Assembly: GCA_017554285.1 (NCBI GenBank)
Contig: JAFZIQ010000149.1
Location: 1-60,104, forward strand
Direction of reading: 5' to 3'
Origin: Selenomonadaceae bacterium
GTDB taxonomy: Bacteria > Bacillota > Negativicutes > Selenomonadales > Selenomonadaceae
Length of the DNA stretch: 60,104 nt
Shown: positions 1 to 48,089 of the stretch, piece after piece
How the letters are laid out: every line of letters begins with the position of its first letter
Numbering within the stretch: the stretch's first letter is position 1
Notes under the pieces: generated by a model
Told to the model about the DNA's origin: nothing
Database searches by the model: none
Seen by the model: the letters and a program-made list of their open reading frames with translations, nothing else
Translations under genes and position numbers: made by a program

Positions 1-17
1 TAATCCCTAATCCCTAA
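1..17. repeat. Heptamer array (TAATCCC x2), cut by the window edge
   Basis: TAATCCCTAATCCCTAA lies directly downstream of the fliF stop. Same vocabulary as the right arms at 57883-57902. Confidence 0.7.
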
Positions 18-1796: not shown

Positions 1797-1814
1797 TAAA
1801 CTCAGTCCTTTCTA

Positions 1815-1876
1815 GGGGTCAGGGGTCAGGGGTCAGGAGCCAAGATTTTTCCCTAACACCTAACACCTGACACCTA
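1815..1876. repeat. Inverted heptamer-array hairpin between fliE and fliF
   Basis: GGGGTCA x3 plus GGAGCCA, loop AGATTTTT, then CCCTAAC ACCTAAC ACCTGAC ACC. The arms pair with one mismatch per repeat. The right arm overlaps the fliE stop. Confidence 0.8.
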
Positions 1877-2176: not shown

Positions 2177-2198
2177 CTTGTCACCTTCCTTTTTATTT

Positions 2199-2247
2199 GG
2201 GAATTAGGAATTGGGATTTAGGAATCAGTTCCTATTTTCCTATTTCC
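2199..2247. repeat. Inverted heptamer-array hairpin between flgC and fliE
   Basis: GGGAATT AGGAATT GGGATTT AGGAATC, then AGTTCCT ATTTTCCT ATTTCC. Overlaps the last codons of flgC. Confidence 0.8.
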
Positions 2248-2681
2248 AACGCTTTGGTCATCATAGCCTTAGCGGAATTTATTGCGGTTGAATTTGCCTC
2301 GTAAGCTCTCTGCGCGGTTATCATATCAACCATTTCGCTGACGATATTTACATTGGGCTTTTCAACGTAACCGGCGGCATTTGCATCCGGATGACCCGGA
2401 TCGTATACAAGCGGTCCCTGTTGGTCGTCTTCTTCAATGGCAACTGCGCGGACGCCTTCGCTGGTCTGTCGACTTATGCCGACTGCTCTTCTGAGAGTTC
2501 GTTCAAAACCTTTCGGCTCGCGGACTCGCGGCTCAAAAACTACGTAGCGTCGATGATAAGCTCCGCCGCGTTCGGTGCGAGTCGTATTTGCGTTGGCGAT
2601 ATTATTTGATATAACGTCCATTCGTAATCGCTCGGCAGTCAAGCCCGACGCCGAAGCATCAATCCCTAAAAACATTCCCAT
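2232..2681 (-). CDS. flgC: Flagellar basal-body rod protein FlgC
   Basis: 149 aa with the N-terminal rod motif SASGLTAERLRMDVISNNIANANTTRT and a C-terminal rod-family segment. Confidence 0.93.
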   Translation of the reverse strand: MGMFLGIDASASGLTAERLRMDVISNNIANANTTRTERGGAYHRRYVVFEPRVREPKGFERTLRRAVGISRQTSEGVRAVAIEEDDQQGPLVYDPGHPDANAAGYVEKPNVNIVSEMVDMITAQRAYEANSTAINSAKAMMTKALEIGK

Positions 2682-2699
2682 TCCTAATCCCTACTTCCC
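2673..2699. repeat. Single-arm heptamer array between flgB and flgC
   Basis: CATTCCC ATTCCTA ATCCCTA CTTCCC. On the coding (minus) strand it supplies the GGGATTAGGAATGGGAATG region containing the flgC start. Confidence 0.65.
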
Positions 2700-22279: not shown

Positions 22280-22284
22280 GTAAA

Positions 22285-22375
22285 GTGGTCAGTGGAAAGT
22301 GAAAAGGGGTAAGGGGGAAGGAATCAGGTTTTAGGTTTTAATAATTCCTAATTCCTAATTCCCAATTCCTAATTC
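22285..22375. repeat. Long inverted heptamer array between tolC and tamB
   Basis: GTGGTCA GTGGAAA GTGAAAA GGGGTAA GGGGGAA GGAATCA GGTTTTA GGTTTTA, then ATAATTCC TAATTCC TAATTCC CAATTCC TAATTC, immediately followed by TTTGAAAGGAGC (the SD of tamB). Confidence 0.8.
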
Positions 22376-22395
22376 TTTGAAAGGAGCTGTTCGCC

Positions 22396-25300: not shown

Positions 25301-26784
25301 TGCTTTTGACGGCGACAGGCAATATAAAAGGTTCGACTTTCGATTTATTGCACGGGCATTTTCTGTTAAAGGATTGGCGCGTCAACGTGGAGGAATTGAC
25401 TGTTCAGCGCGAACTTGCAGGCAAAACTTACGGCGCGAGTATGGAAGGATTTATTCCGCTTAAGGCATTGCTTGCCCGCTCCAAAGAGAATTTGCCCGAT
25501 AATGAACAGCTGAACTTGACGGTTTCATTGGACGGCGCAGATTTAAGTTTGTTGCCCGTTATGAATAAGATGATTAAATTCGGCGTCGGCGAATTGGGCG
25601 GCTCGGTTAAAATCACGGGCACGGCGGCGCATCCGCAATTCAACGGGCAAATCGCAATGAATGACGGCTCAATTAAACTTAAGGGCATGAAGAGTTTGAT
25701 TGAACACATAAACGTTTCCATGCTTTTCAAGGGCGAACGCTTTGACATAGAAAATTTTTCGGGCAATATCGGTTCGGGAACGTTTGCGCTGACGGGCGGA
25801 TTTAATTTTCCCGGTTTGGAGTTCCAAGATTATAATTTCGATTTTGCGGCGAATGCTCTTGATATTGACAGCGATTATTTTGACGGAATTTTTAACGCGA
25901 ATTTTAATTTCAGTGAGGCTAAACTTCGTAAGTGGACAATGCCTAAACTTTCGGGGCAAATTAATTTGGATAAATGCCGAATAAGTGTCCCGACGATTCC
26001 CGATTCCGACGACCCGCTCCCCGATATTCTTTTGGACGTGGGATTGAATCTCGGCGAAAAAGTTCATTTTTACAGCTCGCACCTTTACGATATGTATTTT
26101 ACGGGCAATGCGAATTTTGAAGGCACAACGCTTCACCCCAAAACGTCGGGCACAATTAACGTTAAGCGCGGCGGTACCTTGACTTATCTTGAAACAGTGT
26201 TTAATATTCGTGAATGCGAAGTTTATTTTAATCAGATAGATTCTTTCCTGCCGACGTTGCGTTTCGCCGCCGATACCAAGATTTCAAATGTAAAAATTTT
26301 CTTGAATGCTCACGGACAACCGGGAAATATGGAATTTAAATTGACTTCCAGCCCCGAAATGACTCAAGAAGAAATTGCAAAATTGCTTACGTTGCGCGAG
26401 GCTTATTCCAGAGGCGGCGAAGTAACTTTGACAACGGAAGATGCTTTGGCAATCGGCTTGCAAATGACATTGCTCGGCGACCTTGAGGACGCTTTAAAGA
26501 AAACTCTCGGCATAGACCAATTCACGGTTTCGAGGGGTTCGGGTTCCATGTTCGAGAGACATACGACGGGCGAACAGAGTAAAGGCGACCGCGATAAAGA
26601 TTATAACGTCAAAATCGGCAAGTACATTAATGATAAGCTCATGTTGAGATACACTCGCGGTTTCGGCAGTCATAAAGTCAATCGTTACGGCATTCAATAT
26701 GATTTCAATGATAATTTAGGTTTTACGATAGAGCGCGAAGGCAAAGATTACATCTTCAGCATTGAGGCGCGATATAAATTTTAG
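22396..26784 (+). CDS. tamB: TamB/AsmA-like translocation and assembly module protein
   Basis: 1462 aa with an N-terminal TM anchor, a long repetitive beta-rich body and a C-terminal DUF490-like end finishing ...IEARYKF. Sits directly upstream of bamA. Confidence 0.8.
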   Translation: MWKVLKILGGALIILALGGGLYINSKRTEIIENALATVEETASKALGVPVKIGNVDLDKINLLELDKNSDIVIHDIEIFDKNSELIAKVDKAEVNFKLLALRDDPVAALDEIKLDGALLNLKKRDENSWNVNDIKLESEGESTFDAKISLERGTINADFDGKKISVEEISGEADCANMNAIETKINAKTLGAQINATGTLGKEQQVINAKVDNIFFDKVLPFLPEDKIPEGVEILRGSAEKTSIHLLRKGDALSYLGSTVVKGAAVKVEKTDVENIFGTVTFNENEIIIDGSATANGQHAAASGKIYLDTDETFFDIYAESAGFTPSAIISDIGIKGAADVRAHLIGTAKNPQVNADIYSDWLAYENYSAQNISTKLRYVGEMIYLNDTSLNILGGNVTGTAEIRTSDLTFNANVKANGLDAATLCDFAGSENVINGIISADLGINGGGDKPVKVYGNAKANTLDFEDFRINEANASFYFAENNLTIDYLSANLPNNGTLGLEGKITDMSNLALNFYGAHVDMAIAKKFNSALDLSGLADFKGAVIGDASNPNVTLELSAVDRSEDSEHFIGKIFKQPYDSIRLMVSGSLDGVHIDDFVLEKDGDIKWKVIEGKVGLTGNKNVNIQLDTTEVRAEDIAALVAPDQEITGNVTNTVKITGTIDNPQVAGNIKFNRGSYRGVLLSGMTGDYFLDGDIVRLQDFEITSPMVDMILNGTINKNTQVMDFVVEGKDINLQRFKSKLPEKYNAEGHIKFEGLIKGTPDIPIFEGELTSDEILLNGIALTNVYGHVETNGANVYLTDFHLRDGDANCQMMLSMNLDSETVSGEAEVTDANIANMFTIADVNNELLDGKLNSKILIGGTLTKLHGSLEGDIPQGTFAGYDIHDIKVAINLLNNSVYINQLEGKQGDKGTINMHGSANLNGPLDMTLTAKDLELGIFSKAAGLDLEMVGTSNIVAKLGGTIYDPFGELLLTATGNIKGSTFDLLHGHFLLKDWRVNVEELTVQRELAGKTYGASMEGFIPLKALLARSKENLPDNEQLNLTVSLDGADLSLLPVMNKMIKFGVGELGGSVKITGTAAHPQFNGQIAMNDGSIKLKGMKSLIEHINVSMLFKGERFDIENFSGNIGSGTFALTGGFNFPGLEFQDYNFDFAANALDIDSDYFDGIFNANFNFSEAKLRKWTMPKLSGQINLDKCRISVPTIPDSDDPLPDILLDVGLNLGEKVHFYSSHLYDMYFTGNANFEGTTLHPKTSGTINVKRGGTLTYLETVFNIRECEVYFNQIDSFLPTLRFAADTKISNVKIFLNAHGQPGNMEFKLTSSPEMTQEEIAKLLTLREAYSRGGEVTLTTEDALAIGLQMTLLGDLEDALKKTLGIDQFTVSRGSGSMFERHTTGEQSKGDRDKDYNVKIGKYINDKLMLRYTRGFGSHKVNRYGIQYDFNDNLGFTIEREGKDYIFSIEARYKF

Positions 26785-26857
26785 GGACTAGGGATTAGGG
26801 AACAGGGATTAGGGATTAGAATTTCTGTTCCCCGTTCCCTTGTACCTGTTCCCTAAC
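26784..26857. repeat. Inverted heptamer-array hairpin between tamB and bamA
   Basis: GGGACTA GGGATTA GGGAACA GGGATTA GGGATTA, loop GAATTTC, then TGTTCCC CGTTCCC TTGTACC TGTTCCC TAAC, followed by TGTTAAAGGAGGA (the SD of bamA). Confidence 0.85.
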
Positions 26858-26872
26858 TGTTAAAGGAGGATT

Positions 26873-29009: not shown

Positions 29010-29669
29010 ATGATTGTTTACGCAACGCACAAAGGCGGAAAATATCTTCCGCTAGCCGAGAGTTTGAAAATTGATTCGACAACCCCGCGAGGTCTCTACG
29101 TAAATTTAACCAATCGTTGCAACTGCGATTGTGTATTTTGCTTGCGACAGAAAAAAAATATGGCTAAGGAATCCAGTTTATGGTTGGAGCGCGAGCCGAC
29201 TGTCAATGAAGTCAAAGCCGACTTGGACGGCGCGTGTTGGCAAGTTATTAAGGAAGTAGTCTTTTGCGGATTCGGCGAGCCGACAATAAGACTTGCCGAG
29301 CTTGTCGAGCTTTTGGCTTATGTAAAAAAAATTCGCCCGAATATGCCGACGCGTCTTAACACAAACGGCTTGGGCGAACTTTATAACGGGCGGGAGATTG
29401 CGGCGGACTTTGAAAACATTCTGGACACGGTATCAATAAGCCTCAATGCCGCGACTGCCGAAAAATATTTTAAAATTACTCGCGCCGCTTACGGGATAAA
29501 GTCTTTCGACGCCATGTTGACTTTCGCCGAACATATGAAAAAATTTGTTCCGCACGTTGTTTTAACCGTCGTCGATAAAGTTACTTCTCCCGATGAAATT
29601 ATTGCTTGTCAAAAAATTTGCGACGAACACGGCTTAACATTGCGCGTTCGTCCTTACGAGGACAGCTGA
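29010..29669 (+). CDS. Small radical SAM protein (possibly the TatD-associated radical SAM family)
   Basis: CX3CX2C cluster motif in YVNLTNRCNCDCVFCLR. About 219 aa. The subfamily is recalled only tentatively. Confidence 0.6.
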   Translation: MIVYATHKGGKYLPLAESLKIDSTTPRGLYVNLTNRCNCDCVFCLRQKKNMAKESSLWLEREPTVNEVKADLDGACWQVIKEVVFCGFGEPTIRLAELVELLAYVKKIRPNMPTRLNTNGLGELYNGREIAADFENILDTVSISLNAATAEKYFKITRAAYGIKSFDAMLTFAEHMKKFVPHVVLTVVDKVTSPDEIIACQKICDEHGLTLRVRPYEDS

Positions 29670-31582
29670 AGAGAATTCTTGCTTTGTTTGAAACGGTAAA
29701 TACCCGCTCCAAGTTTCCTCTGACCACTGACCATTTTCCACTTATCACTTAACTTGCCGTCTAAGGCGTCGCGATAAAGTTTGACAACCTGCGCGGTGAC
29801 TTCGGGCGAATAATTCTGCGCCTCGATTCGTAACGACGCCGCTCCAAAAAATTTCTCTACGTAAGGCAACAAACATAAATCCTTACCGAAGAAAATATGC
29901 CAACGTTTGAATTGGTCGACGCGCAACGAATGAATTTCGCCCGCCTCGTCTTCAAGCGCGTAATGACGATTTAATTTATCGGGCGTCGCAAATTCGTCAT
30001 AATCGGGCAGATAAAGCTTGGCAATATTATGGTCGCTAATCATTGATTCAATCGCGCCGTGAACTATAATTTCAATCGGCAACGGCGAATTTTCAACGAC
30101 GCTCCGAACCTGCGCGAAACTCAATTCAAGTGACGCGGTCGCCTGTACTGCGCCCAAATTTTTTAAGAAATCAGCGGCAACGGGATTAAACAGGTTGAAT
30201 GAGAAATCGGCATAAATCGGCGCGTCCGTCAAAGTCCTAATCGAATTCAGCGTACCCAAATTCCCAACCATAACGCCGTCAATTCCTAATTCCCAATTCC
30301 TGATTCCTATTTCCTCTTTAAATGTTCTGGGCGTAGCCAAAATAATTTTCTTTCCTGCCGCGTGAGCAATCTCGACGGCTTTTTTTATTTTGGAAAGAGT
30401 GAACGGCTTAAGCGGCTTGAAAATTTCGCCGCCGATATAAATAACGTCCGCGCCGTTTTTAATCGCCGCCTCCGCACTTTCCAAACTCGAAACCCGCGCA
30501 GATAATTTAGGGGCTGGGGAATAGGGACTAGGGACTAGAGGTTTAATCGCCCTTTCCTCAGCGAAAATATTTTTTACGGCTTCATCGTCAAAGCTCGGCT
30601 CGACAACTGCGCGGCTGAAAATTTTAGGCTCGCGTTCGCCCGTAATGCCAATATCTTTAATCGTCGGCATACCGAATGCAAATGTCGTAGTGAAATCGCG
30701 CACCCGATTTTTATAAAGCTCGGCAAAACGTTCCTCATTGACGCTGTAACCCGCCGGGTCGGCAAGGTAAGAATCTATTTCCTGTCGATAAGTCGAAACC
30801 AAGCGGCGAACAAATTCGGGCGGTCTCATACGTCCTTCAATCTTGAAACTCACAACCCCCGCTTGAATCAGGTCGGGAATATTTCTGAACATGCACATAT
30901 CATTAAGGGCGAGCTTATAAGAAAAATCGTTGAGAGTTTCGCCCGTCGTTTCGTCGATAAGTTTGTAAATCCAGCGGCAAGGCTTCATGCAACGCCCGCG
31001 ATTGCCGCTCTGCCCGAAAACTACGCCCGAATGAATACATTGCCCCGATTCGGCAAAGCACATATCGCCATGCATAAAATATTCAACTTCAATGCCCGTG
31101 CGCTCCTTAAGCAAAGCGACTTCCGTTAAAGTCAATTCGCGCCCGACAACCACGCGAGTTATTCCGAACTTTTTAAGCAGTTCAATCGTTTGGAAATTGT
31201 GCGTGTTCATCATAACTGAGGCGTGCATGGGAATTTTTATGCCGAGCTTGCGAACAAGATTTATAACCGCCAAATCCTGTACCAAAATCGAATCGGGCTG
31301 AATTTCGTTAAGATAAGCAAGATATTTTTCGAGCGGAGCAATTTCTTCCGCGCTGATTAAGTTATTCAGCGTGACATAAATTTTAACGCCGCGTTCGTGA
31401 GCAAATTCGACAGCCGCCTTGAGTTGCGCGTCATCAAAATTAAAATCAGAACGATGAACGCGCATATTGAAAGCCTTGCCGCCCAAATAAACTGCGTCCG
31501 CGCCCGCCTCAATCGCCGCAACGAGCGAATTCCATTGTCCGGCGGGAGCCAAAAGTTCAACCGATTTTCTATCCAAAGTCAT
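29654..31582 (-). CDS. Peptidase U32 family protein with two tandem U32-type modules
   Basis: N-terminal module ELLAPAGQWNSLVAAIEAGADAVYLGG plus the U32 signature-like EYFMHGDMCFAESGQCIHS. A second module restarts at LSARVSSLESAEAAIKNGADVIYIGG. The linker and one internal loop are encoded by heptamer-repeat DNA. Confidence 0.8.
   Translation of the reverse strand: MTLDRKSVELLAPAGQWNSLVAAIEAGADAVYLGGKAFNMRVHRSDFNFDDAQLKAAVEFAHERGVKIYVTLNNLISAEEIAPLEKYLAYLNEIQPDSILVQDLAVINLVRKLGIKIPMHASVMMNTHNFQTIELLKKFGITRVVVGRELTLTEVALLKERTGIEVEYFMHGDMCFAESGQCIHSGVVFGQSGNRGRCMKPCRWIYKLIDETTGETLNDFSYKLALNDMCMFRNIPDLIQAGVVSFKIEGRMRPPEFVRRLVSTYRQEIDSYLADPAGYSVNEERFAELYKNRVRDFTTTFAFGMPTIKDIGITGEREPKIFSRAVVEPSFDDEAVKNIFAEERAIKPLVPSPYSPAPKLSARVSSLESAEAAIKNGADVIYIGGEIFKPLKPFTLSKIKKAVEIAHAAGKKIILATPRTFKEEIGIRNWELGIDGVMVGNLGTLNSIRTLTDAPIYADFSFNLFNPVAADFLKNLGAVQATASLELSFAQVRSVVENSPLPIEIIVHGAIESMISDHNIAKLYLPDYDEFATPDKLNRHYALEDEAGEIHSLRVDQFKRWHIFFGKDLCLLPYVEKFFGAASLRIEAQNYSPEVTAQVVKLYRDALDGKLSDKWKMVSGQRKLGAGIYRFKQSKNSLQLSS
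30281..30315. repeat. Heptamer array embedded in frame in the U32 peptidase gene
   Basis: AATTCCT AATTCCC AATTCCT GATTCCT ATTTCCT encodes EEIGIRNWELGI on the minus strand. Confidence 0.75.
30510..30541. repeat. Heptamer array embedded in frame in the U32 peptidase gene (inter-module linker)
   Basis: GGGGCTG GGGAATA GGGACTA GGGACTA GAGG encodes PLVPSPYSPAP on the minus strand, exactly between the two U32 modules. Confidence 0.75.
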
Positions 31583-31594
31583 AACTGTCTCCTT

Positions 31595-33388
31595 TTATTT
31601 TCCGCAAAAATTTTTCCAGATTGCCCGATAAATCTTTTCCAACTCGCGAATATAATTTTTGGAATCCATAAGCGCGGAATTTTGCATATGCTCACGAAGT
31701 CCGACGTGATAAGCCGATAACAATTCTTTACGACGACTGAGTTGCACGGCTTTATTTATGTAATCCATAGGACTTTGAGCGATTAGCTCCGAAATATCGG
31801 CGGCATTCAAAATCGACGCGCTGAATCTTGCACCGTGAGTTTTTCCGCGCAGAGTGATAACGGGCACTCCCATATAAAGAGCCTCGCAAGTGGTAGTTCC
31901 GCCCGTGTAAGGATAAGTATCAAGTGCAACGTCAATCTCGCGATATTGTTCGAGATAATCGGGGCTGTAAGGGCGCAAATCAATTCGGTCGAGCGGGAAA
32001 CTCATCTTGGACAATTTTTCTTTGATAATATCTTTGCCTTCGTCGAGACTGCAAAGTTTATTTTTAAGAATCAGTTTGGAATTGGGGACGCGCTCCAAAA
32101 TCGCCCGCCAAAGATAAAGCAACTCCTCATGGATTTTGGCGAAGTTATTAAAACTGCCGTAAGTTATGAATCCGTTTTTCAGAAAAGGAGCGCGGAGGTC
32201 GACGGCAGGCATTTCGCGAATCAAACCGGGCGAATAACATAAACTGCACGGCTCGACGCGCAGAATTTTTTCCGTGAAACTTGTCGGGAGATTTTCGGGC
32301 GAACAAATTTTATCGGACAAAAAATAATCGACGGCAGATAAACCTGTCGTTGAGATGTAACCTATGCCGCAAATCTGAACGGGCGCGGGCTTATAAGCCA
32401 AAATCGGGAGGCAACTGTCTTGCGAATGCCCCGATAAATCGACGAGAATATCAACCTTATCTTCGGCGATGATATTAGCCGCCAATAACGGCGTTTTGCC
32501 TATTAAATCGCGCCAACCGACATTGAAATTTTTAAGCTTAACCGTGACGGAATCTTTTCTGCCGGTGAAGTAGCAAGTAACGGAGAAATTTTCGGCATCG
32601 TAATTTTGCAGGAGCGGCGGGATAAAATTAGCAACGGCATGTTCGCGGAAATCGGGCGAGATATAACCGACGTGAATTTTTTTATCGGCGTTGAAGGATT
32701 TTTTATCGTGCGTAAAAGGCGTTGTGTTCTCGAAGAACGAATTATATTTCTGCGCAAGCTCTTTAATCTGCGCTTGAGACAGGTCGCGATAATTTTTAAG
32801 GAATAAATGTTTGGAGTAAAGCTCCGCCGCGAGTTCGTCATTATAAATCAGCGAGCTTGCTTCCAAAAGAGATTCAGCCGCCCGCGCAGGTTCGCCCGTC
32901 AAATAAAGTCCGTTTGAACTCCAACAAAGGGCTTTGAACAAAAGCGATCTGACAATGAAATTTTCCTTATCGATTCGCCGCTCAAATTTTTCGTCCTCCG
33001 AAGTTCTTTTGCGGCGGTTGAAGGCGAATTTGCGATTATGTTCCTGAAGATTTGCCCGCAATCTTTTTAATTCTTTGTGCGCGTCATTTATCACGGCGTC
33101 CAAAATGTTCAGTTGAGTTTTGAGCTTGAAATTTTTTATGGCGACGCCGCCCGTAACAAGTCGTCCGCGCAGATGATTAGGTTCGACAGAGAGCGCGTAT
33201 TGAGCAAATGATTCGGCTTCCTGCAAATCACCCTGATAAAATGATGCCTCCGCCATAAGCGCGAGACCTTCAGCGGAATTTTTATCCAGCTCGAAAATTT
33301 CACGAGCGACGGTGCGCATTGATTGAGTATCGCCGTCCTGCGAGAATTTTTCCGCCGGTAAAACCCAATCCAGAATTTTATCGTCCAT
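31595..33388 (-). CDS. TPR-repeat glycosyltransferase of the O-GlcNAc transferase / SPINDLY-like (GT41) type
   Basis: N-terminal TPR-like helices. The C-terminal half with HVGYISPDFREHAVANFIPPLLQNYD and GVPVITLRG is typical of bacterial GT41-like proteins. ATG 33388 lies behind a GGAGGG SD; the ORF-track TTG 33409 is less likely. Confidence 0.65.
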   Translation of the reverse strand: MDDKILDWVLPAEKFSQDGDTQSMRTVAREIFELDKNSAEGLALMAEASFYQGDLQEAESFAQYALSVEPNHLRGRLVTGGVAIKNFKLKTQLNILDAVINDAHKELKRLRANLQEHNRKFAFNRRKRTSEDEKFERRIDKENFIVRSLLFKALCWSSNGLYLTGEPARAAESLLEASSLIYNDELAAELYSKHLFLKNYRDLSQAQIKELAQKYNSFFENTTPFTHDKKSFNADKKIHVGYISPDFREHAVANFIPPLLQNYDAENFSVTCYFTGRKDSVTVKLKNFNVGWRDLIGKTPLLAANIIAEDKVDILVDLSGHSQDSCLPILAYKPAPVQICGIGYISTTGLSAVDYFLSDKICSPENLPTSFTEKILRVEPCSLCYSPGLIREMPAVDLRAPFLKNGFITYGSFNNFAKIHEELLYLWRAILERVPNSKLILKNKLCSLDEGKDIIKEKLSKMSFPLDRIDLRPYSPDYLEQYREIDVALDTYPYTGGTTTCEALYMGVPVITLRGKTHGARFSASILNAADISELIAQSPMDYINKAVQLSRRKELLSAYHVGLREHMQNSALMDSKNYIRELEKIYRAIWKNFCGK

Positions 33389-33462
33389 GAAATCCCTCCG
33401 ACATGACAAACAATTTTAATCAATAATAAACTAAACGTTCCGAAATGACAACCGCTAAAAAC

Positions 33463-33491
33463 TTGCCAACGTTAAAACTTTATCCTACAAT
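33463..33491 (+). promoter_or_regulatory. Sigma70-type promoter for the pilin gene
   Basis: TTGCCA (33463-33468), 17-nt spacer, TACAAT (33486-33491). Confidence 0.5.
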
Positions 33492-33517
33492 GGACAAAAA
33501 CGTAAGGAGTGATTCAG

Positions 33518-33928
33518 ATGAATCAACGAGGCTTTGCAACATTGGAAGTAATTTTAATGGTAATGGTTATCGGGATTCTGGCGTCGATAGCGATCCCGCG
33601 ATTTACTTCCGTCACGACCGCCGCCAACACTGCCAAAATTCAAGCTGATCTTTCGACCCTTGACGCCGCCATTGCACTTTACTACATGGAAAATAATGAC
33701 CATCCTACTAAAATCAGCGATTTAACCAAGTATCTGCAAGATGAAGTTAAACCTCCTAAAGGTAAAGCCTTAATTAAAACCGCGACAGGAACTGATAATA
33801 CGATAACAATTCCTTCAACTTATGACCTTAGTACAGATAAAACTCGTGCAGTCTTGAAAGTCAGTAACAACGAATACACTGTAGGAGATTTTACGACGAA
33901 AAAAACAACTGATACGACAGACGGTTAA
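33518..33928 (+). CDS. Type IV pilin / pseudopilin-like protein (prepilin-type N-terminal cleavage/methylation domain)
   Basis: MNQRGFATLEVILMVMVIGILASIAIPRF is a class III signal (G|F-x-x-x-E) plus a hydrophobic helix. AAGGAG SD before ATG 33518. Confidence 0.85.
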   Translation: MNQRGFATLEVILMVMVIGILASIAIPRFTSVTTAANTAKIQADLSTLDAAIALYYMENNDHPTKISDLTKYLQDEVKPPKGKALIKTATGTDNTITIPSTYDLSTDKTRAVLKVSNNEYTVGDFTTKKTTDTTDG

Positions 33929-34034
33929 TAAAAACTTTTCCTGTAATCCCTATGCCTTTTCATGTAAAGTTTATTGACGCCACAAAGATTTTTTGATAGA
34001 ATTCGCGCTGGGAAAAAATTTTTTTCTGGAAGGC

Positions 34035-34062
34035 TTAATGATTTGAGTTCAATATACGATAA
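34035..34062 (+). promoter_or_regulatory. Sigma28 (FliA)-like promoter upstream of flagellin 1
   Basis: TTAAT, a ~15-nt spacer, then TACGATAA (34055-34062). This matches the TAAA-N15-GCCGATAA class and is nearly identical in layout to the site at 35818-35844. Confidence 0.5.
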
Positions 34063-34174
34063 GATTTACAGAAAAGAGATCATTAAAGAAGTACGGGGCG
34101 GGAAATCGTCCTGCGTGGGAGACTTTGTAAGACCTTAAGAATTTTTGAGGCATTAGTTAATTGAAAAGGGAATA

Positions 34175-34328
34175 GACGGGCTCAAGGTTGCAACACTCGT
34201 TACGCGTGCGAGGCGCAGTCTTCCGACGACGGTTGGGAGACAAGCACATTGAACCGTTTGTTTGGCGGCGGAAAGGAAACCGTCGACTAAGGAAAAATTT
34301 TTCTAGGAAGATCAGGGAGGAAATAATC
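34175..34328 (+). promoter_or_regulatory. Conserved structured 5' leader of flagellin 1
   Basis: Shares long identical blocks with 37394-37543: CACTCGTTACGCGTGCGA, CGACGGT...TTTGGCGGCGGAAAGGAAACCGTCG, and the A/GGGAGGAAAT SD. A CGACGGT/ACCGTCG stem presents a GGA-rich loop, and a second GGA lies in the SD. Confidence 0.6.
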
Positions 34329-35645
34329 ATGGCAATGGTAGTAAAGACCAACATGAGCGCAGTTCGTACGCTCAACACTTTGAATCAAAACAGCACCGCG
34401 CTCCAGAAGAGCTTGACGAAAGTCGCAAGCGGCATGAAAATTAACGGCGCACAAGATGATGCTTCGGGCTATGCAATTTCTGAACGTATGCGCGTCCGTA
34501 TCCGTTCACTCGATCAAGCAAATCAAAACAGCCAAAACGACTCCGCTTTGATGAAGACCGCTGAAGGCGCGGTTTCCAACACGATTGAAATCCTTAAGGC
34601 TTTGAAAGAAAAAGCCATCAATGCTGCCAACGACAGCAATACCGAAGAAGATCGTCAGACAATCCAAAAGGAAGTCGACCAATTCATCGATCAAATCGAC
34701 GACAATGCACTTGTTCAATTTAACGGTAAATATCTCGTCGACGGCTCGAAAAATAACGTCGTATCCGCTTCCAAGACTATTCTTCTCAATCAAAGTTTGG
34801 CAACCAATACGACAGCAGATTCGTATTTGACTGCCCTTAATAATCGTGCCGGCGATGCCCTTGAAATTCAATCGACTGATAAGTATCAAGTTTCTTGGGT
34901 TATGAATGGCGTAACCATGACAACAAGCGGAACAGTAGGCACAGAAACTAATTTAACGGCTCTTATGAAGGTAGGAGGCGAAGACAAGGCTACCTTAACC
35001 GCTCAGTCAGATGCTAGCCCTACTACAATTGGTACAGACAAATATAATGTGGATGTTTATACTCCGGATAAAGCTCCCGGTGTGGCACTTCTTTCTTTGA
35101 CCACCGGCGTAACATCACAAATTTCCGGCTTCACAATCAGCATTACCGACGCACAAGGTAACGTTAAGAAAGCAGCCAATGCCGCTCTCGACGCCTTCAA
35201 ACAATATCAGCGTGCTGAAAATGAAACCGGCGACAAGTCTTTGACTTTCCATGTCGGTTCGGAAGCAAACGTTGCTATCAAAGTCGGCATCGGTGATATG
35301 CGTGCAGAGGCTCTCGGTCTTAAGGGCAGTAACGGATCCGACAGAGTCAGAGTTACGACGAAAGAAAATGCCAATGCGGCTATCAACGCCATTGAAAACG
35401 CTCTTGCCAAAGCTCTTGATCAGCAAACCACTATCGGTGCTATTGAAGCTCGTCTCGAATACACCAGTGCTAACCTCACCACTTCGAGTGAGAATGTCCA
35501 AGCGTCTGAGTCCACGATTCGTGATGCTGATATGGCTAAAGAAATGACCAACTACACCAAGAATAACGTCTTGTTGCAGTCGGCTCAAGCCATGCTTGCT
35601 CAAGCCAATCAAAACTCCAGCGCAGTGCTCAGCTTGCTCCAGTAA
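34329..35645 (+). CDS. Flagellin
   Basis: MAMVVKTNMSAVRTLN..., ASGMKINGAQDDASGYAISERMR (N-terminal D0/D1), and conserved C-terminal D1/D0 (IRDADMAKEMTNYTKNNVLLQSAQAMLAQANQ...LSLLQ). ATG 34329 lies behind a GGGAGG SD. The ORF-track start 34188 lies in the leader. Confidence 0.95.
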   Translation: MAMVVKTNMSAVRTLNTLNQNSTALQKSLTKVASGMKINGAQDDASGYAISERMRVRIRSLDQANQNSQNDSALMKTAEGAVSNTIEILKALKEKAINAANDSNTEEDRQTIQKEVDQFIDQIDDNALVQFNGKYLVDGSKNNVVSASKTILLNQSLATNTTADSYLTALNNRAGDALEIQSTDKYQVSWVMNGVTMTTSGTVGTETNLTALMKVGGEDKATLTAQSDASPTTIGTDKYNVDVYTPDKAPGVALLSLTTGVTSQISGFTISITDAQGNVKKAANAALDAFKQYQRAENETGDKSLTFHVGSEANVAIKVGIGDMRAEALGLKGSNGSDRVRVTTKENANAAINAIENALAKALDQQTTIGAIEARLEYTSANLTTSSENVQASESTIRDADMAKEMTNYTKNNVLLQSAQAMLAQANQNSSAVLSLLQ

Positions 35646-35817
35646 GCTCAATAACCCGCTGAGGTTACAATCAAAGTCTGAAAGTGTGCGCATTACGCGC
35701 ATGATGTTCGATACTAAAAAAATCGTCGGCGCAAATGTCGGCGATTTTTTTATATCGTTCTTCCGCTTGAAACTTAGGATTTTGTTTGATATACTTAAAA
35801 AAATTTTCTCGGAACCC

Positions 35818-35844
35818 TTAAGCATTTCAGAATGTCAACGATAA
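35818..35844 (+). promoter_or_regulatory. Sigma28 (FliA)-like promoter upstream of flagellin 2
   Basis: TTAA (35818-35821), 15-nt spacer, AACGATAA (35837-35844). Confidence 0.5.
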
Positions 35845-35920
35845 AATTCTTAAGAGACAGTGAGAGGCGAAAGGGAATTGATCGCCTAAATTCTTTTCAA
35901 AAATCAAGGAGGAAAAAATC

Positions 35921-37231
35921 ATGAGTATGATAGTTAAGAATAACATTGAGGCACTTCGAGTAATTAACCTTTTGGATCAAAATAACAACATGCTTCAACA
36001 GAACTTGAATAAAGTCGCAACCGGTATGAAAATCAACACTGCCCAAGACGATTCCGCCCCGTGGTCAATTTCCGAACGTATGCGCATGAGAATTCGCGCT
36101 CTCGAACAGGATAATCAAAACGTTCAAAACGATGCCGCCATGATGAAAACCGCCGAAGGCTCCGTTTCCAACACAATCGAAATCTTGAAAACTCTTAAAG
36201 AACGCGCCATTAATGCCGCCAATGATTCCAATACCGACGAAGATCGCGCTGTCATTCAAAAGGAAATCGACCAATTCATCGACCAAATCGACGATAATGC
36301 CCTCGTGCAATTCAACGGCAAATATCTCATTGACGGCACTAAAAATAATACCGTTTCCGCTACGAAAACTATCCTCCTCAATCAGAGTTTGGCAACGGAC
36401 ACCACTGCCGGCACAGCTTTAACGGCACTTCAAAACCGCGTCGGCGATTCTCTTGAAATTCAATCTACAGATTATGTTCATGTTTCGGCTGTTATAGATG
36501 GCAATTTGAAAATGTATACAAGTGCTGTCGGTGATAAATCATTGGAAGCTATTTTAGGCGAAGAAATATTTAGCGATGTAACCAGCGCGGCAATCGACGA
36601 AAACGGTAAAATCGGCGACCTCATTGATAAATTTGCTTTTGACGCTTACACGCCCGACAGAGAAGCCGGCATTGCCGTTGTATCCGCAACCGAAGGCGTC
36701 ACAAATCAAATCGCCGGTTTCAATATCAGCATTTTGGACGCTCAAGGCAACGTCAAAAAGGCGGCTAACGCGGCACTCGATGATTTCAGACTCGTGCAAC
36801 GTGCAGAAAATCAAACGGGAGATCATTCGCTGACTTTCCACACAGGGCCTGAAGCAAACGTCGCTATCAAAGTAGGTTTAGGCGATATGCGAGCCGCTGC
36901 GCTCGGTCTTAAAGGCAGTGACAATAATAAAATCAGCGTCCGAACTAAAGAAGCCGCGAATTCTTCTATCAACGTCATTGATAATGCCCTTACAATGTCG
37001 CTTAATCAGCAGATAAATATCGGCTCAATCTTGTCACGCCTCGATTACACAAGCGCGAATATCATTACGGCAAGGGATAATGACCAAGCCTCCGAATCCA
37101 CTATCCGCGATGCAGATATGGCTAGAGAAATGACGAATTACACCAAGAGCAACGTCCTTGTTCAGACCGCGCAGGCTATGCTTGCTCAAGCTAATCAGGG
37201 TTCAAGCGCGGTGCTCGGCTTATTACGATAA
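35921..37231 (+). CDS. Flagellin (paralogue 2)
   Basis: 436 aa. The N- and C-terminal D0/D1 segments are very similar to flagellin 1, while the central region diverges. Confidence 0.95.
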   Translation: MSMIVKNNIEALRVINLLDQNNNMLQQNLNKVATGMKINTAQDDSAPWSISERMRMRIRALEQDNQNVQNDAAMMKTAEGSVSNTIEILKTLKERAINAANDSNTDEDRAVIQKEIDQFIDQIDDNALVQFNGKYLIDGTKNNTVSATKTILLNQSLATDTTAGTALTALQNRVGDSLEIQSTDYVHVSAVIDGNLKMYTSAVGDKSLEAILGEEIFSDVTSAAIDENGKIGDLIDKFAFDAYTPDREAGIAVVSATEGVTNQIAGFNISILDAQGNVKKAANAALDDFRLVQRAENQTGDHSLTFHTGPEANVAIKVGLGDMRAAALGLKGSDNNKISVRTKEAANSSINVIDNALTMSLNQQINIGSILSRLDYTSANIITARDNDQASESTIRDADMAREMTNYTKSNVLVQTAQAMLAQANQGSSAVLGLLR

Positions 37232-37326
37232 TCAACGACTGTTCATTAATGGAAGTCGTTGACATATTTTTTTCAGAATCCTCTTGACAGATAAAAAATT
37301 TTATGAAATTATAGTGCATTGTCTCG

Positions 37327-37355
37327 TTGACACTTGAAATTTTTCTTGATAAAAT
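37327..37355 (+). promoter_or_regulatory. Sigma70-like promoter upstream of flagellin 3
   Basis: TTGACA (37327-37332), 17-nt spacer, TAAAAT (37350-37355). I found no convincing sigma28 -35/-10 pair here. Confidence 0.4.
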
Positions 37356-37393
37356 CGAATCGGAAGCATTAGTTTCAGCTTTATCAGATAATG

Positions 37394-37543
37394 AGCGGGT
37401 TCACGATTGAAGCACTCGTTACGCGTGCGAAGTGTGAGTTCTGGCGACGGTCGGAAATCAATCTGACTCGTTTATTTGGCGGCGGAAAGGAAACCGTCGT
37501 TTCAGGATGAATTTATCTAAGGAATATCAAGGAGGAAATTACA
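37394..37543 (+). promoter_or_regulatory. Conserved structured 5' leader of flagellin 3 (paralogue of 34175-34328)
   Basis: Same conserved blocks and same CGACGGT/ACCGTCG stem with a GGCGGCGGAAAGGAAA loop. SD is CAAGGAGGAAAT. Confidence 0.6.
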
Positions 37544-38464
37544 ATGACTTCAGCAATCAGAACGAACATGAATTCGGTGCGCGCTCACAATATCTTTGAA
37601 GCCAACAACGCACAGGCAACAAAGTCATTCAACAATGTTTCAACCGGTCTGCGCATCAACAGCGTTCAGGACAATCCTACCAATTACGTGATCACCGAGA
37701 AAATGCGCGAACGCATCAATTCTCTCGGTCAAGCACAACAAAATATCCAAAACGATACGGCTATGTTGAAAACTGCCGACAAAGGCATGAGTAACATTGT
37801 GGACATTCTTCGCTCGCTCAATGCTCGCGCTCTTGAAGCAGCCGACGATTCAGTCCAAGACAACGACCGCGTCAACATCGCGAAAGAAATGACTTCGCTC
37901 ATGGAGCAAATCAATTACACTGCGCTTAGCACGAAGTATAACGGTAAAAATCTCCTCGCCACTGAATCCGGGAAAGCGGATAATGCAACTGATATTGCAA
38001 GCGCAGCAACCGATAATGTTACGCTTCAATTCCAAGTCGGTGACGATACAACCGCTGTAATAGCAGGCGTTACCATTCAAAACATGACATTAACTGCTCT
38101 TGGACTCGATACTGCGTATGCCAACGTTAGTGCTATCACAGATGCTACGACTGCTACTCCGCTGAAATCTGCTTCGAATAACGGTACCGTCAGTGAATTA
38201 CAAACCGCATTAAGTACGGCACTTGATAAAGCACTGAGCGGAATGGCGAATGTCGGTGCTTTGGAACAGCGTCTGGGTTACACTGCCGACGACGTCTCCG
38301 GTCAAATCGAGAACTTGGAAGCATCAGTTTCTAACATCGCTGATTCGGATATGGCTAAGGATATTTCCGATTACATGAAGTGGAATGTTTTGGGGCAAGC
38401 GGCGCAGTACATGCTCGCGCAATCGAATCAAAGTGCGTTCCAGGTGCTTAACTTACTCCAATGA
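37544..38464 (+). CDS. Flagellin (short paralogue 3)
   Basis: 306 aa. N-terminal STGLRINSVQDNPTNYVITEKMR and C-terminal IADSDMAKDISDYMKWNVLGQAAQYMLAQSNQ...LNLLQ. The variable domain is reduced. Confidence 0.92.
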   Translation: MTSAIRTNMNSVRAHNIFEANNAQATKSFNNVSTGLRINSVQDNPTNYVITEKMRERINSLGQAQQNIQNDTAMLKTADKGMSNIVDILRSLNARALEAADDSVQDNDRVNIAKEMTSLMEQINYTALSTKYNGKNLLATESGKADNATDIASAATDNVTLQFQVGDDTTAVIAGVTIQNMTLTALGLDTAYANVSAITDATTATPLKSASNNGTVSELQTALSTALDKALSGMANVGALEQRLGYTADDVSGQIENLEASVSNIADSDMAKDISDYMKWNVLGQAAQYMLAQSNQSAFQVLNLLQ

Positions 38465-46423: not shown

Positions 46424-48070
46424 TTAATCGCCGTCGTCTTCTTTATCGAACAGCTCGCAATAATAACCGTTCTTGCCGCTGTTCTTCACGTGATAAACCG
46501 CTTTGTCAGCCGACGCAAACAAGCTGTCATAATCGCGCCCGTTCTGCGGAGCAATCGCAATCCCGATACTAGCCGTTACAATGTGCCCTTTTCCTTCAAC
46601 CGTCAAATTAAACGCTATCTGCTTAATCTGTTCCGCCTTGCGAAGGACAACCTCCATATTCGGCAAGCTGTCAACGATAACAACAAATTCGTCGCCGCCA
46701 AATCGCCCGATACAATCATTCGGTCGGAAAATCTTCCTCAAGCCGCGTGCAAATTCGACTAAAACTTTATCGCCGAATTGATGCCCGAAAAGGTCGTTGA
46801 CTTCCTTAAAGTGATCCAAATCTATCACGTAAAACGCCATAAAAATATTTGAAGTCTCATTCTCATTGAACGTCTTAAGTTTCATTCGACAAAGATTTTC
46901 CATAGTCTTTTTGTTGAAAAGCTCGGTCAATCTGTCAAGCTCCGATTCCATTTTGAAAATATCGCGCTCCGAAGTCATTTTGTCGCGCTCGGAACGAATC
47001 TTATTGAACGCCTTCGCCATTTGTCCCAATTCGTCATCGCTGTTGACTTCGATTTTATCAATGGAAGTATTGCCGCTCGCAATCTCGTCAACAACGTTTG
47101 TCATCTCAATTATCGGATTTGTAACTTGAATCGTCAGCAAATACGCAACCAACGTTCCGATAAACAGCATAACCATTCCAAAAATTATCGCCTTAACCGC
47201 CTTATCGTAAACCAAATCCATAATGTAATGATAAGGACGAACGGTAATAATCATCCAGCCCGTATCAACATTTCTCGAATAAGTTACCAGAGAATCTTCG
47301 CCTTCAAAATCGATTCTGATAACGCCGCTGCTGTTATAAACTCTGTCCAAAATGAATTTATAATTGTTGTCAATCGAATACTCGGCTCCGAACTCCAAGC
47401 TGTTTTCGGAATGGACGATAACTCGCCCCGTCCTGTCCATTACGATAACCGCAATTTCTTCGTCATCAAAATTCTGAACGAACTCCAACAGAGATTCCAA
47501 ATTAAAATTCCTCTGAACCATGCCGACAGGTTTTCCCTCCGCATTGAGTATCGGAATTTCTATCGCTATCATCATTTTTCCCGTAGACATGCTGGAGACA
47601 ATATCCGAGACGTAACTTCTGCCCTTCATAGCCTCTTGAAAGTGCTGGCGTTTTTCCAGATTTACGAGCTTGGAACCGTCCGTGCGAAAAATTTGCATAC
47701 CGTCGGCTCCCGTTAATGCCATAAGGTTTGAATCGTTAAAAATGGCGTTGGTGTCTTCCAAAAGTTTCGTGACGCTTTCGCGTTGCGCTTCATTTTTATT
47801 CTGAACGTAATCGACTATCAGCGGTGATAATGCCAATGAATGCAAGACGTGTTGATTCACTTCGATTAATGATGAAACGTGCTCGGAGATAATCGTATTT
47901 CGGAGCAAACTGTTTTGTTTGGCTGTCGCTTCCAATTCGTAAACGGCATTGTATGCACTGACAACTACCAAAATGAGAAACGGGATTGCACCCATGATTA
48001 TAAAAAAGAAAAACATTCTGGCTTTGATGCCTTTACTGAAATCCATAATTCCTAATTCCTGATTCCTCAT
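46424..48070 (-). CDS. Diguanylate cyclase with periplasmic Cache-like sensor and HAMP domain
   Basis: TM, extracytoplasmic domain, TM, HAMP (IIEMTNVVDEIASGN), and GGDEF domain (RFGGDEFVVI). The first 8 codons of the ORF-track model are heptamer-repeat DNA, so ATG 48046 (MDFSKG) is an alternative start. Confidence 0.88.
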   Translation of the reverse strand: MRNQELGIMDFSKGIKARMFFFFIIMGAIPFLILVVVSAYNAVYELEATAKQNSLLRNTIISEHVSSLIEVNQHVLHSLALSPLIVDYVQNKNEAQRESVTKLLEDTNAIFNDSNLMALTGADGMQIFRTDGSKLVNLEKRQHFQEAMKGRSYVSDIVSSMSTGKMMIAIEIPILNAEGKPVGMVQRNFNLESLLEFVQNFDDEEIAVIVMDRTGRVIVHSENSLEFGAEYSIDNNYKFILDRVYNSSGVIRIDFEGEDSLVTYSRNVDTGWMIITVRPYHYIMDLVYDKAVKAIIFGMVMLFIGTLVAYLLTIQVTNPIIEMTNVVDEIASGNTSIDKIEVNSDDELGQMAKAFNKIRSERDKMTSERDIFKMESELDRLTELFNKKTMENLCRMKLKTFNENETSNIFMAFYVIDLDHFKEVNDLFGHQFGDKVLVEFARGLRKIFRPNDCIGRFGGDEFVVIVDSLPNMEVVLRKAEQIKQIAFNLTVEGKGHIVTASIGIAIAPQNGRDYDSLFASADKAVYHVKNSGKNGYYCELFDKEDDGD

Positions 48071-48089
48071 TCCTAATTGCTAAAATTGC
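48046..48089. repeat. Single-arm heptamer array at the 5' end of the diguanylate cyclase gene
   Basis: TAATTCC TAATTCC TGATTCC TCATTCC TAATTGC TAAAATTGC. On the minus strand this reads AGGAATTAGGAATTATG. Confidence 0.75.

Follow-up and report, generated by a model that had tools for sequence, protein, structure and literature searches.

Tandem heptanucleotide arrays and heptamer hairpins in operon spacers and a U32 peptidase gene of a Quinella-like Selenomonadaceae genome

What kind of element fills the spacer between tamB and bamA in a Selenomonadaceae genome, and why is it built from seven-nucleotide repeats? The question arises from a 60,104-nt stretch of DNA (contig JAFZIQ010000149.1 of assembly GCA_017554285.1), called the window below, in which an inverted pair of heptamer arrays occupies the tamB-bamA spacer at 26782..26857 on the plus strand. 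Tandem heptanucleotide arrays belong to the most common long simple repeats in bacteria, and no origin or function has found acceptance since they came to notice in 1990. The spacer reads TAG GGACTAGGGATTAGGGAACAGGGATTAGGGATTAG / AATTTC / TGTTCCCCGTTCCCTTGTACCTGTTCCCTAAC, then TGTT AAAGGAGG. Its 5' arm (26782-26819) opens with the tamB stop codon TAG and carries five GGGAyyA units, the loop lies at about 26820-26825, and the 3' arm (26826-26857) consists of TGTTCCC-type units; the bamA Shine-Dalgarno sequence (SD) AAAGGAGG follows at 26862-26869 and the bamA start codon, a TTG, at 26873 or 26879. Folded as RNA, the element has a predicted free energy (dG) of -40.2 kcal/mol (z -3.93; 0 of 200 shuffles as good) and leaves the bamA SD unpaired in the minimum-free-energy structure, and with DNA parameters its dG is -15.8 (z -2.95). 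A first-pass annotation, made from the letters alone, had described it as one of a family of heptamer arrays with a limited vocabulary, a description that our analysis supports. We read these elements, with about an even chance of being right, as fast-turnover microsatellite hairpins arising at the DNA level in unconstrained sequence, with stem-loops in intercistronic mRNA as a consequence.

The periodicity itself is specific to seven nucleotides. Self-similarity at period p was scanned over 21-nt segments at a threshold of at least 15 matches, with Markov-1 random sequence as the null; the sequence base was about 60 kb of this genome (the window) and about 330 kb of relatives, and the array detector requires about three similar units. 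The window contained 12 period-7 regions where 0.6 were expected, and 224 kb from 13 related contigs contained 43 period-7 arrays where 1.3 were expected, so that the periodic enrichment which the first-pass annotation had proposed as a check holds in both. Periods 4, 5, 8, 10 and 11 were at background in the window and in the 224 kb of relatives, and periods 6, 9 and 12 were elevated in the window at the level that coding periodicity predicts. The heptamer feature is real and non-random and, as head-to-tail 7-nt units in excess of chance, belongs to the broad class of heptanucleotide simple sequence repeats of the STRR type. Dispersed loci numbered 11 in the 60 kb of the window, mainly in non-coding DNA, and period-7 calls of Tandem Repeats Finder together with the sequences confirmed tandem heptamers at all ten of the loci listed beforehand. 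Among relatives, array density ranged from 0 per 10 kb (L003, L351, L442) up to 7 per 10 kb (L353).

The arrays are also specific in their placement. In the window they were confined to seven co-directional spacers and to the inside of one gene, encoding a U32 peptidase, and were absent from about eight divergent and about seven convergent spacers, as judged from gene calls that, beyond the Pfam-checked open reading frames (ORFs), came from a simple ORF picker and are rough. Arrays occupied five of the seven co-directional spacers of 50-120 nt, the other two holding a canonical terminator or a promoter-like TTGACA; counted differently, every intra-operon spacer of at least 50 nt without a terminator or promoter-like element was an array (5/5). 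On their upstream side the arrays either began at the preceding stop codon or lay no more than about 6 nt from it, a boundary absent from the first-pass annotation, and with tamB and fliE the TAG codon itself opens the first repeat unit. On their downstream side they lay directly 5' of the next gene's SD, as had been claimed. The motif T(G/T)AAAGGAG, which had been described as the same context following three of the loci, is an ordinary SD: AAGGAG-type sequences occurred at 17 of 46 called genes, and an SD core was present at most 25 nt from the start in 36 of 46.

Five loci are predicted to form long imperfect hairpins as RNA, with dG between -13 and -40 kcal/mol and z between -2.2 and -3.9, in which an array pairs with a complementary array. 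This pairing had been anticipated, with six hairpins rather than five, and computed arm complementarity held for the five; four loci (2673-2699, 48036-48089, 30281-30315 and 30507-30541) are single arrays that showed no structure on RNA folding, with z about 0 or positive. DNA parameters gave much weaker stems in the three loci tested (26782, 57845 and 1812).

The tamB-bamA spacer could be followed across relatives. Synteny around U32 homologues was not conserved and gave no route to this spacer, and a BamA search was used instead: BamA-anchored species-representative loci, a metagenome scan with the conserved tamB 3' end and two further look-ups yielded 14 distinct spacers including that of the window (L360, L362 and L365 duplicate L350, L346 and L349). 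A hairpin was present in nine of the 14, each with its own repeat unit: GGGAyyA in the window, AGGAATT in L346, GGGAGAA / GGGAAAA in L347, AGGTATT in L348, AGTGAAT in L353, GGGGCTA / GGAACTA / AATTCCT in L354, AGCTGTT in L358, GGGACAA in L364 and, in L443, whose BamA is 61% identical, the 8-nt units TAGTGTGA / CACTATCC. The other five spacers were short (12-25 nt). Those of L350, L352 and L442 were plain stretches of 20-25 nt with no repeat, that of L367, TAGCTTTAAGCTTTAAGG, was a two-unit proto-array, and that of L349 (= L365), TAGCTGTTAGCTTATAG, was a two-unit proto-array of TAGCTGT, a unit amplified five-fold in L358. All arrays in this spacer, in the window and in relatives, started at the stop codon and ended 2-8 nt before the SD. 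Furthermore, the two arms matched within each species: duplexes between a spacer's own 5' and 3' arms had a mean energy of -35.4 kcal/mol, against -18.3 +/- 9.3 for cross-species combinations, and by duplex energy the own partner arm ranked first in six of eight cases and second in two. Similar behaviour was seen at the neighbouring hlyD-tolC and tolC-tamB junctions and at minC-minD in L002, and AATTCCT arrays occupied the tolC-tamB spacer of L346, L347, L350, L353 and L354. The comparison of orthologous spacers, which had been expected to be informative, thus revealed presence/absence polymorphism, and the complete turnover of units with the hairpin kept argues that architecture, not sequence, persists at this position. 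The more distant L443, with a GC content of 41%, carried 8-nt-period hairpins both at 9890-10001 (tamB-bamA) and at 5420-5511 (tolC-tamB) (TAGTGTGA / CACTATCC; CTGGAACC).

Turnover of the same kind was found inside a gene. The ORF at 29654..31582 on the minus strand encodes an intact peptidase U32 of 642 aa (Pfam E = 2e-97) and contains three in-frame arrays. The elements had been presented as purely intergenic, and the loci at 30281-30315 and 30510-30541 as lying between genes; both are in frame within this ORF, and the third array, 29716-29751, had been missed. The array at 29716..29751 (minus strand; AGTGATA AGTGGAA AATGGTC AGTGGTC AGAGGA) encodes SDKWKMVSGQRK, the AGGAATT-type array at 30281..30315 (minus strand) encodes EEIGIRNWELGI, and the pyrimidine-rich array at 30507..30541 (minus strand; TAGTCCC twice, TATTCCC and CAGCCCC), which lies in an inter-domain linker, encodes PLVPSPYSPA. 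Protein and codon-threaded alignments of homologues showed that the three sites are hypervariable within the clade, conserved in more distant homologues, and occupied by different units in different species. The 30507-30541 site is a 15-nt linker, ACTTCAAATAAAAAG, in L369 (92% identity), against 30 nt of TAGTCCC-type units in the window, and in L001 it holds AAAAGCT units. At the 30281-30315 site, about 51 nt of ancestral coding DNA, kept in L371, L003 and L001, has given way in the window, L369 and L370 to AGGAATT units totalling 36 nt, and L002 carries there, at 11267-11355, a 90-nt array-loop-complement hairpin that is translated in frame. Comparison of filled with empty U32 sites revealed no target-site duplication. 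Since filled sites replace target DNA and are hypervariable within the clade, the arrays appear to overwrite DNA that tolerates change, with selection keeping only in-frame, stop-free variants. The U32 arrays also yield peptides with a 7-residue periodicity, such as AMRNAQCVMRNKNAISNAQCIIRNEF in P0045.

Replication slippage would account for these observations if it added or removed whole units and if units were homogenised within each arm, the complementary arm being created or replaced by strand-switch or ectopic templated repair. Arrays would then persist wherever sequence is unconstrained, as in the stretches from stop codon to SD within operons and the linkers of a tolerant U32 peptidase. 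The arms are not mirror copies of each other (at 26782, ATTA units prevail in the 5' arm and AACA units in the 3' arm), which suggests that each arm is homogenised separately. Where a purine-rich array precedes its pyrimidine-rich complement in a polycistronic mRNA, the two could pair into an imperfect stem-loop of 25-40 bp that covers the entire spacer, and the closed stem would loop out the extra 60-100 nt, leaving stop codon and SD 3-8 unpaired nucleotides apart; in array-free relatives the stop-to-SD distance is 12-25 nt. We infer that this closeness of stop codon and SD is what allows tightly linked cistrons to tolerate insertions of 60-110 nt, and the generating mechanism and the argument from neutrality are likewise inferred. 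An effect like that of repetitive extragenic palindromic (REP) elements, as an exonuclease barrier or on relative cistron expression, would be secondary and is not required by the data. Across 23 hairpins, neither stability nor G-U counts showed an overall sense-strand bias of the kind that would indicate selection on RNA: the sense RNA was the more stable strand in 13 of 23, with 53 G-U pairs in sense and 43 in antisense. The missing strand bias is what a strand-symmetric DNA process predicts. Nothing in this analysis was evidence for a new mechanism.

Several observations weigh against DNA-level turnover in unconstrained sequence. The purine-rich arm came first in all 21 scorable hairpins and the reverse order in none, which simple slippage does not predict; because this order is the same on both strands, it is uninformative on the direction of transcription. 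The vocabulary is also narrower than random local seeding would give. The AGGAATT class made up 13 of 43 loci across nine genomes, and GGGACTA, GGAACTA, GGGAGAA and ATGCGTA recurred at non-orthologous loci of different genomes, a pattern that points to selection or to sequence-specific propagation. About half of the clade's AGGAATT arrays, coding and non-coding, opened with a variant outer unit, (G/T)CAATT, and GCAATT...AATTGC ends were found at about 15 loci (for example window 48083-48089, L002 5944, L002 11267, L349 2919, L349 3876, L346 9985 and L353 815); the GCAATT outer unit could mark a defined element terminus. Nine lineages, with BamA identities reaching as low as 61%, kept a hairpin at the tamB-bamA position despite the change of period, a retention that could reflect selection for the hairpin there. 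The fliE-fliF hairpin was significant solely as sense-strand RNA. Finally, same-strain contigs from other samples, retrieved with the short conserved proteins FliE and GutA-IIA, were 100% identical across the hairpins, a lack of length polymorphism that is uninformative on length mutability. We also considered genome-specific families of units and did not retain them, unit sharing differing only weakly within (21%) and between (13%) genomes and being dominated by the clade-wide AGGAATT.

The main rival, which we consider possible but unlikely, holds that the elements are adaptive intercistronic RNA stem-loops, like REP elements or Firmicute 5'/3' stabilisers, that bar 3' exonucleases, stabilise the downstream cistron from its 5' end, direct processing or tune translational coupling and so set the relative output of the tamB/bamA or flagellar rod cistrons; the repeat structure of the arms would then simply be how such hairpins grow. 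It would explain why the tamB-bamA hairpin outlasts complete sequence replacement, why arms are matched within each species, why the boundaries coincide so exactly with stop codon and SD while the SD stays unpaired, and why the spacers concerned lie within operons. The fliE-fliF hairpin (1812..1876, minus strand) also speaks for it. This element fills its spacer and is followed by the SD AAAGGA; in the sense of the mRNA its 5' arm, TAGGTGT/CAGGTGT/TAGGTGT, starts from the fliE stop TAG, and its 3' arm is CCTGACC three times. Its RNA has a dG of -33.1 kcal/mol (z -3.65), against -23.5 for the antisense RNA, and as DNA it is weak (dG -10.2, z -1.2, non-significant) because its pairing relies on G-U pairs. 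The set of 23 hairpins as a whole, with its missing sense-strand bias, does not follow this case. Furthermore, spacers of 12-25 nt suffice for five relatives, arrays also occur singly and unstructured or within coding sequence, and the arms, which do not mirror each other, carry 1-2 mismatches per unit.

A broader alternative would make the arrays a self-propagating or actively maintained element of the Quinella clade, either a REPIN with periodic arms (termini GCAATT...AATTGC, purine arm first, a restricted set of units, written by an enzyme or by templated repair between stop codons and SDs and into linkers) or a selected regulatory stem-loop internal to operons, in which sequence could turn over freely and only position and architecture would be conserved. 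We judge this alternative rather unlikely.

Mobility in the strict sense, that is, a non-autonomous hairpin like a miniature inverted-repeat transposable element (MITE), REP or REPIN with termini GCAATTAGGAAT...ATTCCTAATTGC, copied by an enzyme encoded elsewhere in the genome, appears quite improbable. A mobile element would be expected to share its units among loci and genomes, as these arrays do, to end in a recurrent outer unit such as the GCAATT found on unrelated arrays, including those inside U32, and to be present or absent at orthologous sites; the full in-frame hairpin in the U32 gene of L002 resembles the Rickettsia palindromic elements in this respect. Exact (AGGAATT)x2.9 was also found in 66 stretches of viral or proviral contigs, whose GC content spans 24-70%; most of these were single arrays immediately 5' of a start codon, and the unit is therefore not specific to the clade. 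However, the GCAATT terminus was rare among viral AGGAATT arrays (about 10 of 73), target-site duplications were lacking, and filled sites were replacements of target DNA and not simple insertions. All copies differed in length and unit order, so that no full-length element was common to two loci, and the two-unit proto-arrays in place (L349 against L358) argue for local growth. A Pfam scan of about 50 window ORFs found neither a transposase nor a reverse transcriptase, nor a REP-associated tyrosine transposase (RAYT).

Very improbable as a general account is that the arrays act without a hairpin, as G-quadruplexes (at least four G3 tracts), a structure proposed for the Xanthomonas and Nostoc repeats, or as a series of SD-like AGGA/GGGA motifs, spaced by 7 nt, to which 30S subunits (standby or STAB-SD-like) or a CsrA-type GGA-binding regulator would be recruited. 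The 5' arm at 26782, with five G3 tracts and 4-nt loops, has a canonical quadruplex motif, and similar units form quadruplexes in vitro (Rehm et al., 2015; PMC4692102). On the mRNA strand, though, at least four G3 tracts occur at that one window locus only (26782-26819), so the quadruplex model would fit the flagged locus alone. The commonest unit, AGGAATT, has only GG, and ATGCGTA, AGCTGTT and AGTGAAT have neither G-tracts nor GGA; moreover, the purine-rich arm is predicted to be paired in hairpin loci. Binding by the ribosome or a CsrA-type protein could apply where single purine-rich arrays abut a start codon; in viral contigs, (AGGAATT)n lies mostly a short way 5' of one. One such array (2673..2699, minus strand; GGGAAGT AGGGATT AGGAATG GGAATG) lies in the 23-nt flgB-flgC spacer, overlaps the flgC start, is the source of the only SD-like motifs there and does not fold as RNA (z -0.06). 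Another (48036..48089, minus strand; AGCAATT AGGAATG AGGAATC AGGAATT AGGAATT) fills the spacer between a T2SSF-like and a GGDEF gene, abuts the ATG of the latter, where it again supplies the sole SD-like motifs, and likewise gives no RNA fold (z +0.27). SD-like or CsrA-type binding could operate at these two arrays.

The window hairpins have no U-tract, which led us to reject intrinsic termination and makes a role as attenuator or terminator unlikely: neither the stem at 26857 nor that at 57906 is followed by a T-run, and a terminator scan called no heptamer hairpin in 20-30 kb. As a separate observation, L346 has a hairpin of GGGAAAA / CTTCTCC units directly after bamA (12147-12233) that is followed by a T-run and looks like an intrinsic terminator built of heptamer-repeat material.

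Heptamer hairpins are widespread outside the Quinella-like clade. GGGAnnA-type arrays and hairpins occurred widely, among the matches listed, in viral contigs of 28-74% GC. A pattern scan of viral contigs for GGGAnnA at period 7 gave at least 120 matches, the period-6 control at least 120 and period 8 103 stretches; comparison of these three periods shows no period specificity, and we draw no enrichment from it. High-GC viral loci (L020, L022, L023, L028, L032, L106, L110 and others) had the common context cctgagca(GGGAGCA)n aaaggaat, and L016, L037, L074, L100 and L122 carried array-loop-complement hairpins.

The remaining window loci vary the same theme. At 1..17 on the minus strand, a (TTAGGGA)x2.4 array identified by Tandem Repeats Finder lies just 3' of the stop codon (24) of fliF, itself assigned by its Pfam match; the locus is cut by the window edge, and a second arm may lie outside the window. 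The flgC-fliE spacer holds a weak hairpin (2194..2250, minus strand; dG -13.1 as RNA, z -2.5) of GGAAATA/GGAAAAT and AATTCC(T/C) units whose 5' arm overlaps the flgC stop codon. Between the tolC-like (OEP) gene and tamB, a compound imperfect hairpin (22284..22377, plus strand; dG -31.9 as RNA, z -2.2) fills the spacer with a degenerate G-rich 5' arm and then (TAATTCC)x5, with the SD AAAGGAG at about 22381. The spacer between a phosphotransferase system (PTS) IIA gene, gutA, and a DRL-type oxidoreductase gene has a hairpin (57845..57906, plus strand) that begins directly after the TGA stop codon and consists of GGGAACA twice and GGGATTA, the loop GATTTTTC, and TGTTCCC TAATCCC TAACCC TAATCCC, then GAAAGGAG; its dG is -29.2 as RNA (z -3.36) and -14.4 as DNA (z -3.2). 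One same-strain assembly (L441) ends inside the loop of this hairpin, and the L439 contig runs no further than the stop codon of fliE, which is where the fliE-fliF hairpin starts; heptamer arrays may fragment metagenome assemblies.

The window is an ordinary chromosomal region. Its Pfam-assigned genes include flgB-flgC-fliE-fliF, mlaE/F/D, HlyD-like and TolC-like genes, tamB and bamA, three flagellin genes, a Tad pilus cluster and a sorbitol PTS component, and Rfam 15 gave no match above the gathering score over the whole window. The homologues of its U32 and BamA proteins come from Selenomonadaceae metagenome-assembled genomes and Quinella sp., and the window therefore derives from a Quinella-like rumen member of the Negativicutes, an uncultured organism; no cultured relative carrying arrays was present among the top 120 BamA homologues. 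Four further features stood apart from the heptamers. A 27/54-nt tandem repeat (11853-12006) lies within a 706-nt apparent spacer, and its reverse complement encodes LNGGEGNDKLLGGAGND, nonapeptides of the RTX/HemolysinCabind type; the ORF at 11658..11981 on the minus strand is probably a truncated or decayed RTX-like gene. A 929-aa protein (40851-43640) of unusual architecture, a transporter joined to a hybrid histidine kinase, fuses the amino-acid permease domain AA_permease_2 (residues 4-430) to HisKA, HATPase and receiver domains. The only Pfam signal in a 1232-aa ORF (12419-16117) was a weak one to MreB/Mbl (E = 1.5e-5, residues 701-790), below the curated threshold. Finally, within 31595-38464 a GT41/TPR glycosyltransferase gene adjoins three tandem flagellin genes (34188-35645, 35921-37231 and 37544-38464), which suggests several flagellins, possibly glycosylated.

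These results extend heptamer arrays to a diderm Firmicute lineage, the rumen Quinella-like Selenomonadaceae, and provide in the tamB-bamA spacer a clean comparative series, with nine units in some sequences, none in others, and always the same stop codon and SD boundaries. Slippage and turnover on the one hand and a selected RNA structure on the other are thereby set up as testable alternatives. Should the arrays prove to be a maintained element or a selected stem-loop, they would offer a first mechanistic handle on a 35-year-old question, the function of STRR sequences. On the practical side, the arrays may break assemblies, can mislead the calling of start codons and create spurious protein hypervariability.

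How do these arrays compare with known systems? The STRR sequences of heterocystous cyanobacteria, reportedly described by Mazel and colleagues in 1990, are said to be tandem heptanucleotides in many dispersed copies, with CCCCAGT, TTGGTCA and CAACAGT as the canonical units of STRR1-3. Like them, the arrays studied here sit in non-coding spacers of co-transcribed genes and vary among close relatives; the units (GGGAyyA, AGGAATT, GGGGTCA, AGGTGTT and others) and the taxon differ from those of cyanobacterial STRR1-3, and the array-plus-complement form predominates here in longer operon spacers. REP and REPIN elements of Enterobacteria and Pseudomonas are imperfect palindromes in intra-operon or 3' spacers, with different families at orthologous spacers, and they stabilise mRNA and affect translation near stop codons. 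They are 20-40 nt long, linked to RAYTs and tagged by a conserved GTAG or CGTC, with no tandem repetition in the arms, whereas the hairpins here span 60-115 nt, have periodic arms and end in TAG(G)/TAA... or GCAATT and not in GTAG. MITEs are set apart by the lack of target-site duplication here and by the differing length and unit order of every locus. The Rickettsia palindromic elements, reportedly described by Ogata and co-workers in 2000 as defined-sequence elements of 100-150 bp in frame at tolerant protein positions, share with the U32 hairpin of L002 and the three U32 arrays of the window the occurrence of palindromic repeats in frame in coding genes; unlike them, the arrays here are 7-nt units concentrated in operon spacers.

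The closest counterparts are the GGGAATC arrays of Xanthomonas and the GGGGAYT arrays of Nostoc, which are non-coding and preferentially placed between co-directional ORFs, no more than 50 bp from where an ORF stops or starts (Rehm et al., 2015; PMC4692102). Convergent (inverted) pairs capable of forming stem-loops number 70-75 per Xanthomonas genome; between Xcc and Xac the arrays vary in length and sequence with their type, single or inverted pair, preserved, and their function was left open in that study. The resemblance extends to tandem 7-nt units, typically 3-5 per array and dispersed in mostly non-coding DNA, to the co-directional setting close to stop or start with under-representation between divergent ORFs, and to inverted stem-loop pairs whose type is kept while sequence and length vary. 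The Xanthomonas unit GGGAATC is nearly identical to GGGAATT/GGGATTA of the window, and the purine-arm-first orientation appears to be shared. In contrast to those arrays, a capacity for G-quadruplexes (at least four G3+ tracts) is not a common feature here, where many unit families, most of them unable to form a quadruplex, co-exist. The lineage belongs to a different phylum (Negativicutes). The Quinella-like clade also differs in having the unit fully replaced at one orthologous spacer, the spacer filled from stop codon to SD, and an 8-nt period in L443.

Other heptamers have been reported at similar positions. TAACTGA arrays of marine Beggiatoaceae, cyanobacteria and Bacteroidetes lie a few nucleotides upstream of start codons, with some inside ORFs (MacGregor, 2015; PMC4679880), and Geobacter metallireducens has elements of GGGACCG x4 within and between genes (Aklujkar, 2009; PMC2700814). 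Both resemble the arrays here in placing heptamers upstream of starts in 2-6 units, some in ORFs, with a patchy phylogeny, and a role in translation has been proposed for them and not shown; those genomes have essentially one unit and almost only direct repeats, whereas many units and common inverted pairs were found here. Heptamers are the commonest long simple sequence repeats according to Mrazek (2007), as cited in PMC4679880, and in Nostoc, according to a preprint, heptamer arrays alter the expression of a reporter modestly. The Quinella genome paper makes no mention of such repeats. The first-pass annotation had known of no description of a hairpin joined to an SD, a statement that the inverted pairs of Xanthomonas (PMC4692102), the arrays at starts (PMC4679880) and the GGGACCG elements within and between genes (PMC2700814) overturn: the inverted heptamer-array arrangement is already known in kind. 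We read the arrays of the Quinella-like clade as lineage-amplified tandem heptanucleotides of the same kind as the STRRs of cyanobacteria and the GGGAATC repeats of Xanthomonas. What is new here is the lineage, the multi-unit vocabulary, the exact boundaries at stop codon and SD, the replacement of the unit, and once of the period, at one orthologous spacer with the hairpin kept, and arrays that recur in frame at three linker sites of one enzyme, a U32 peptidase.

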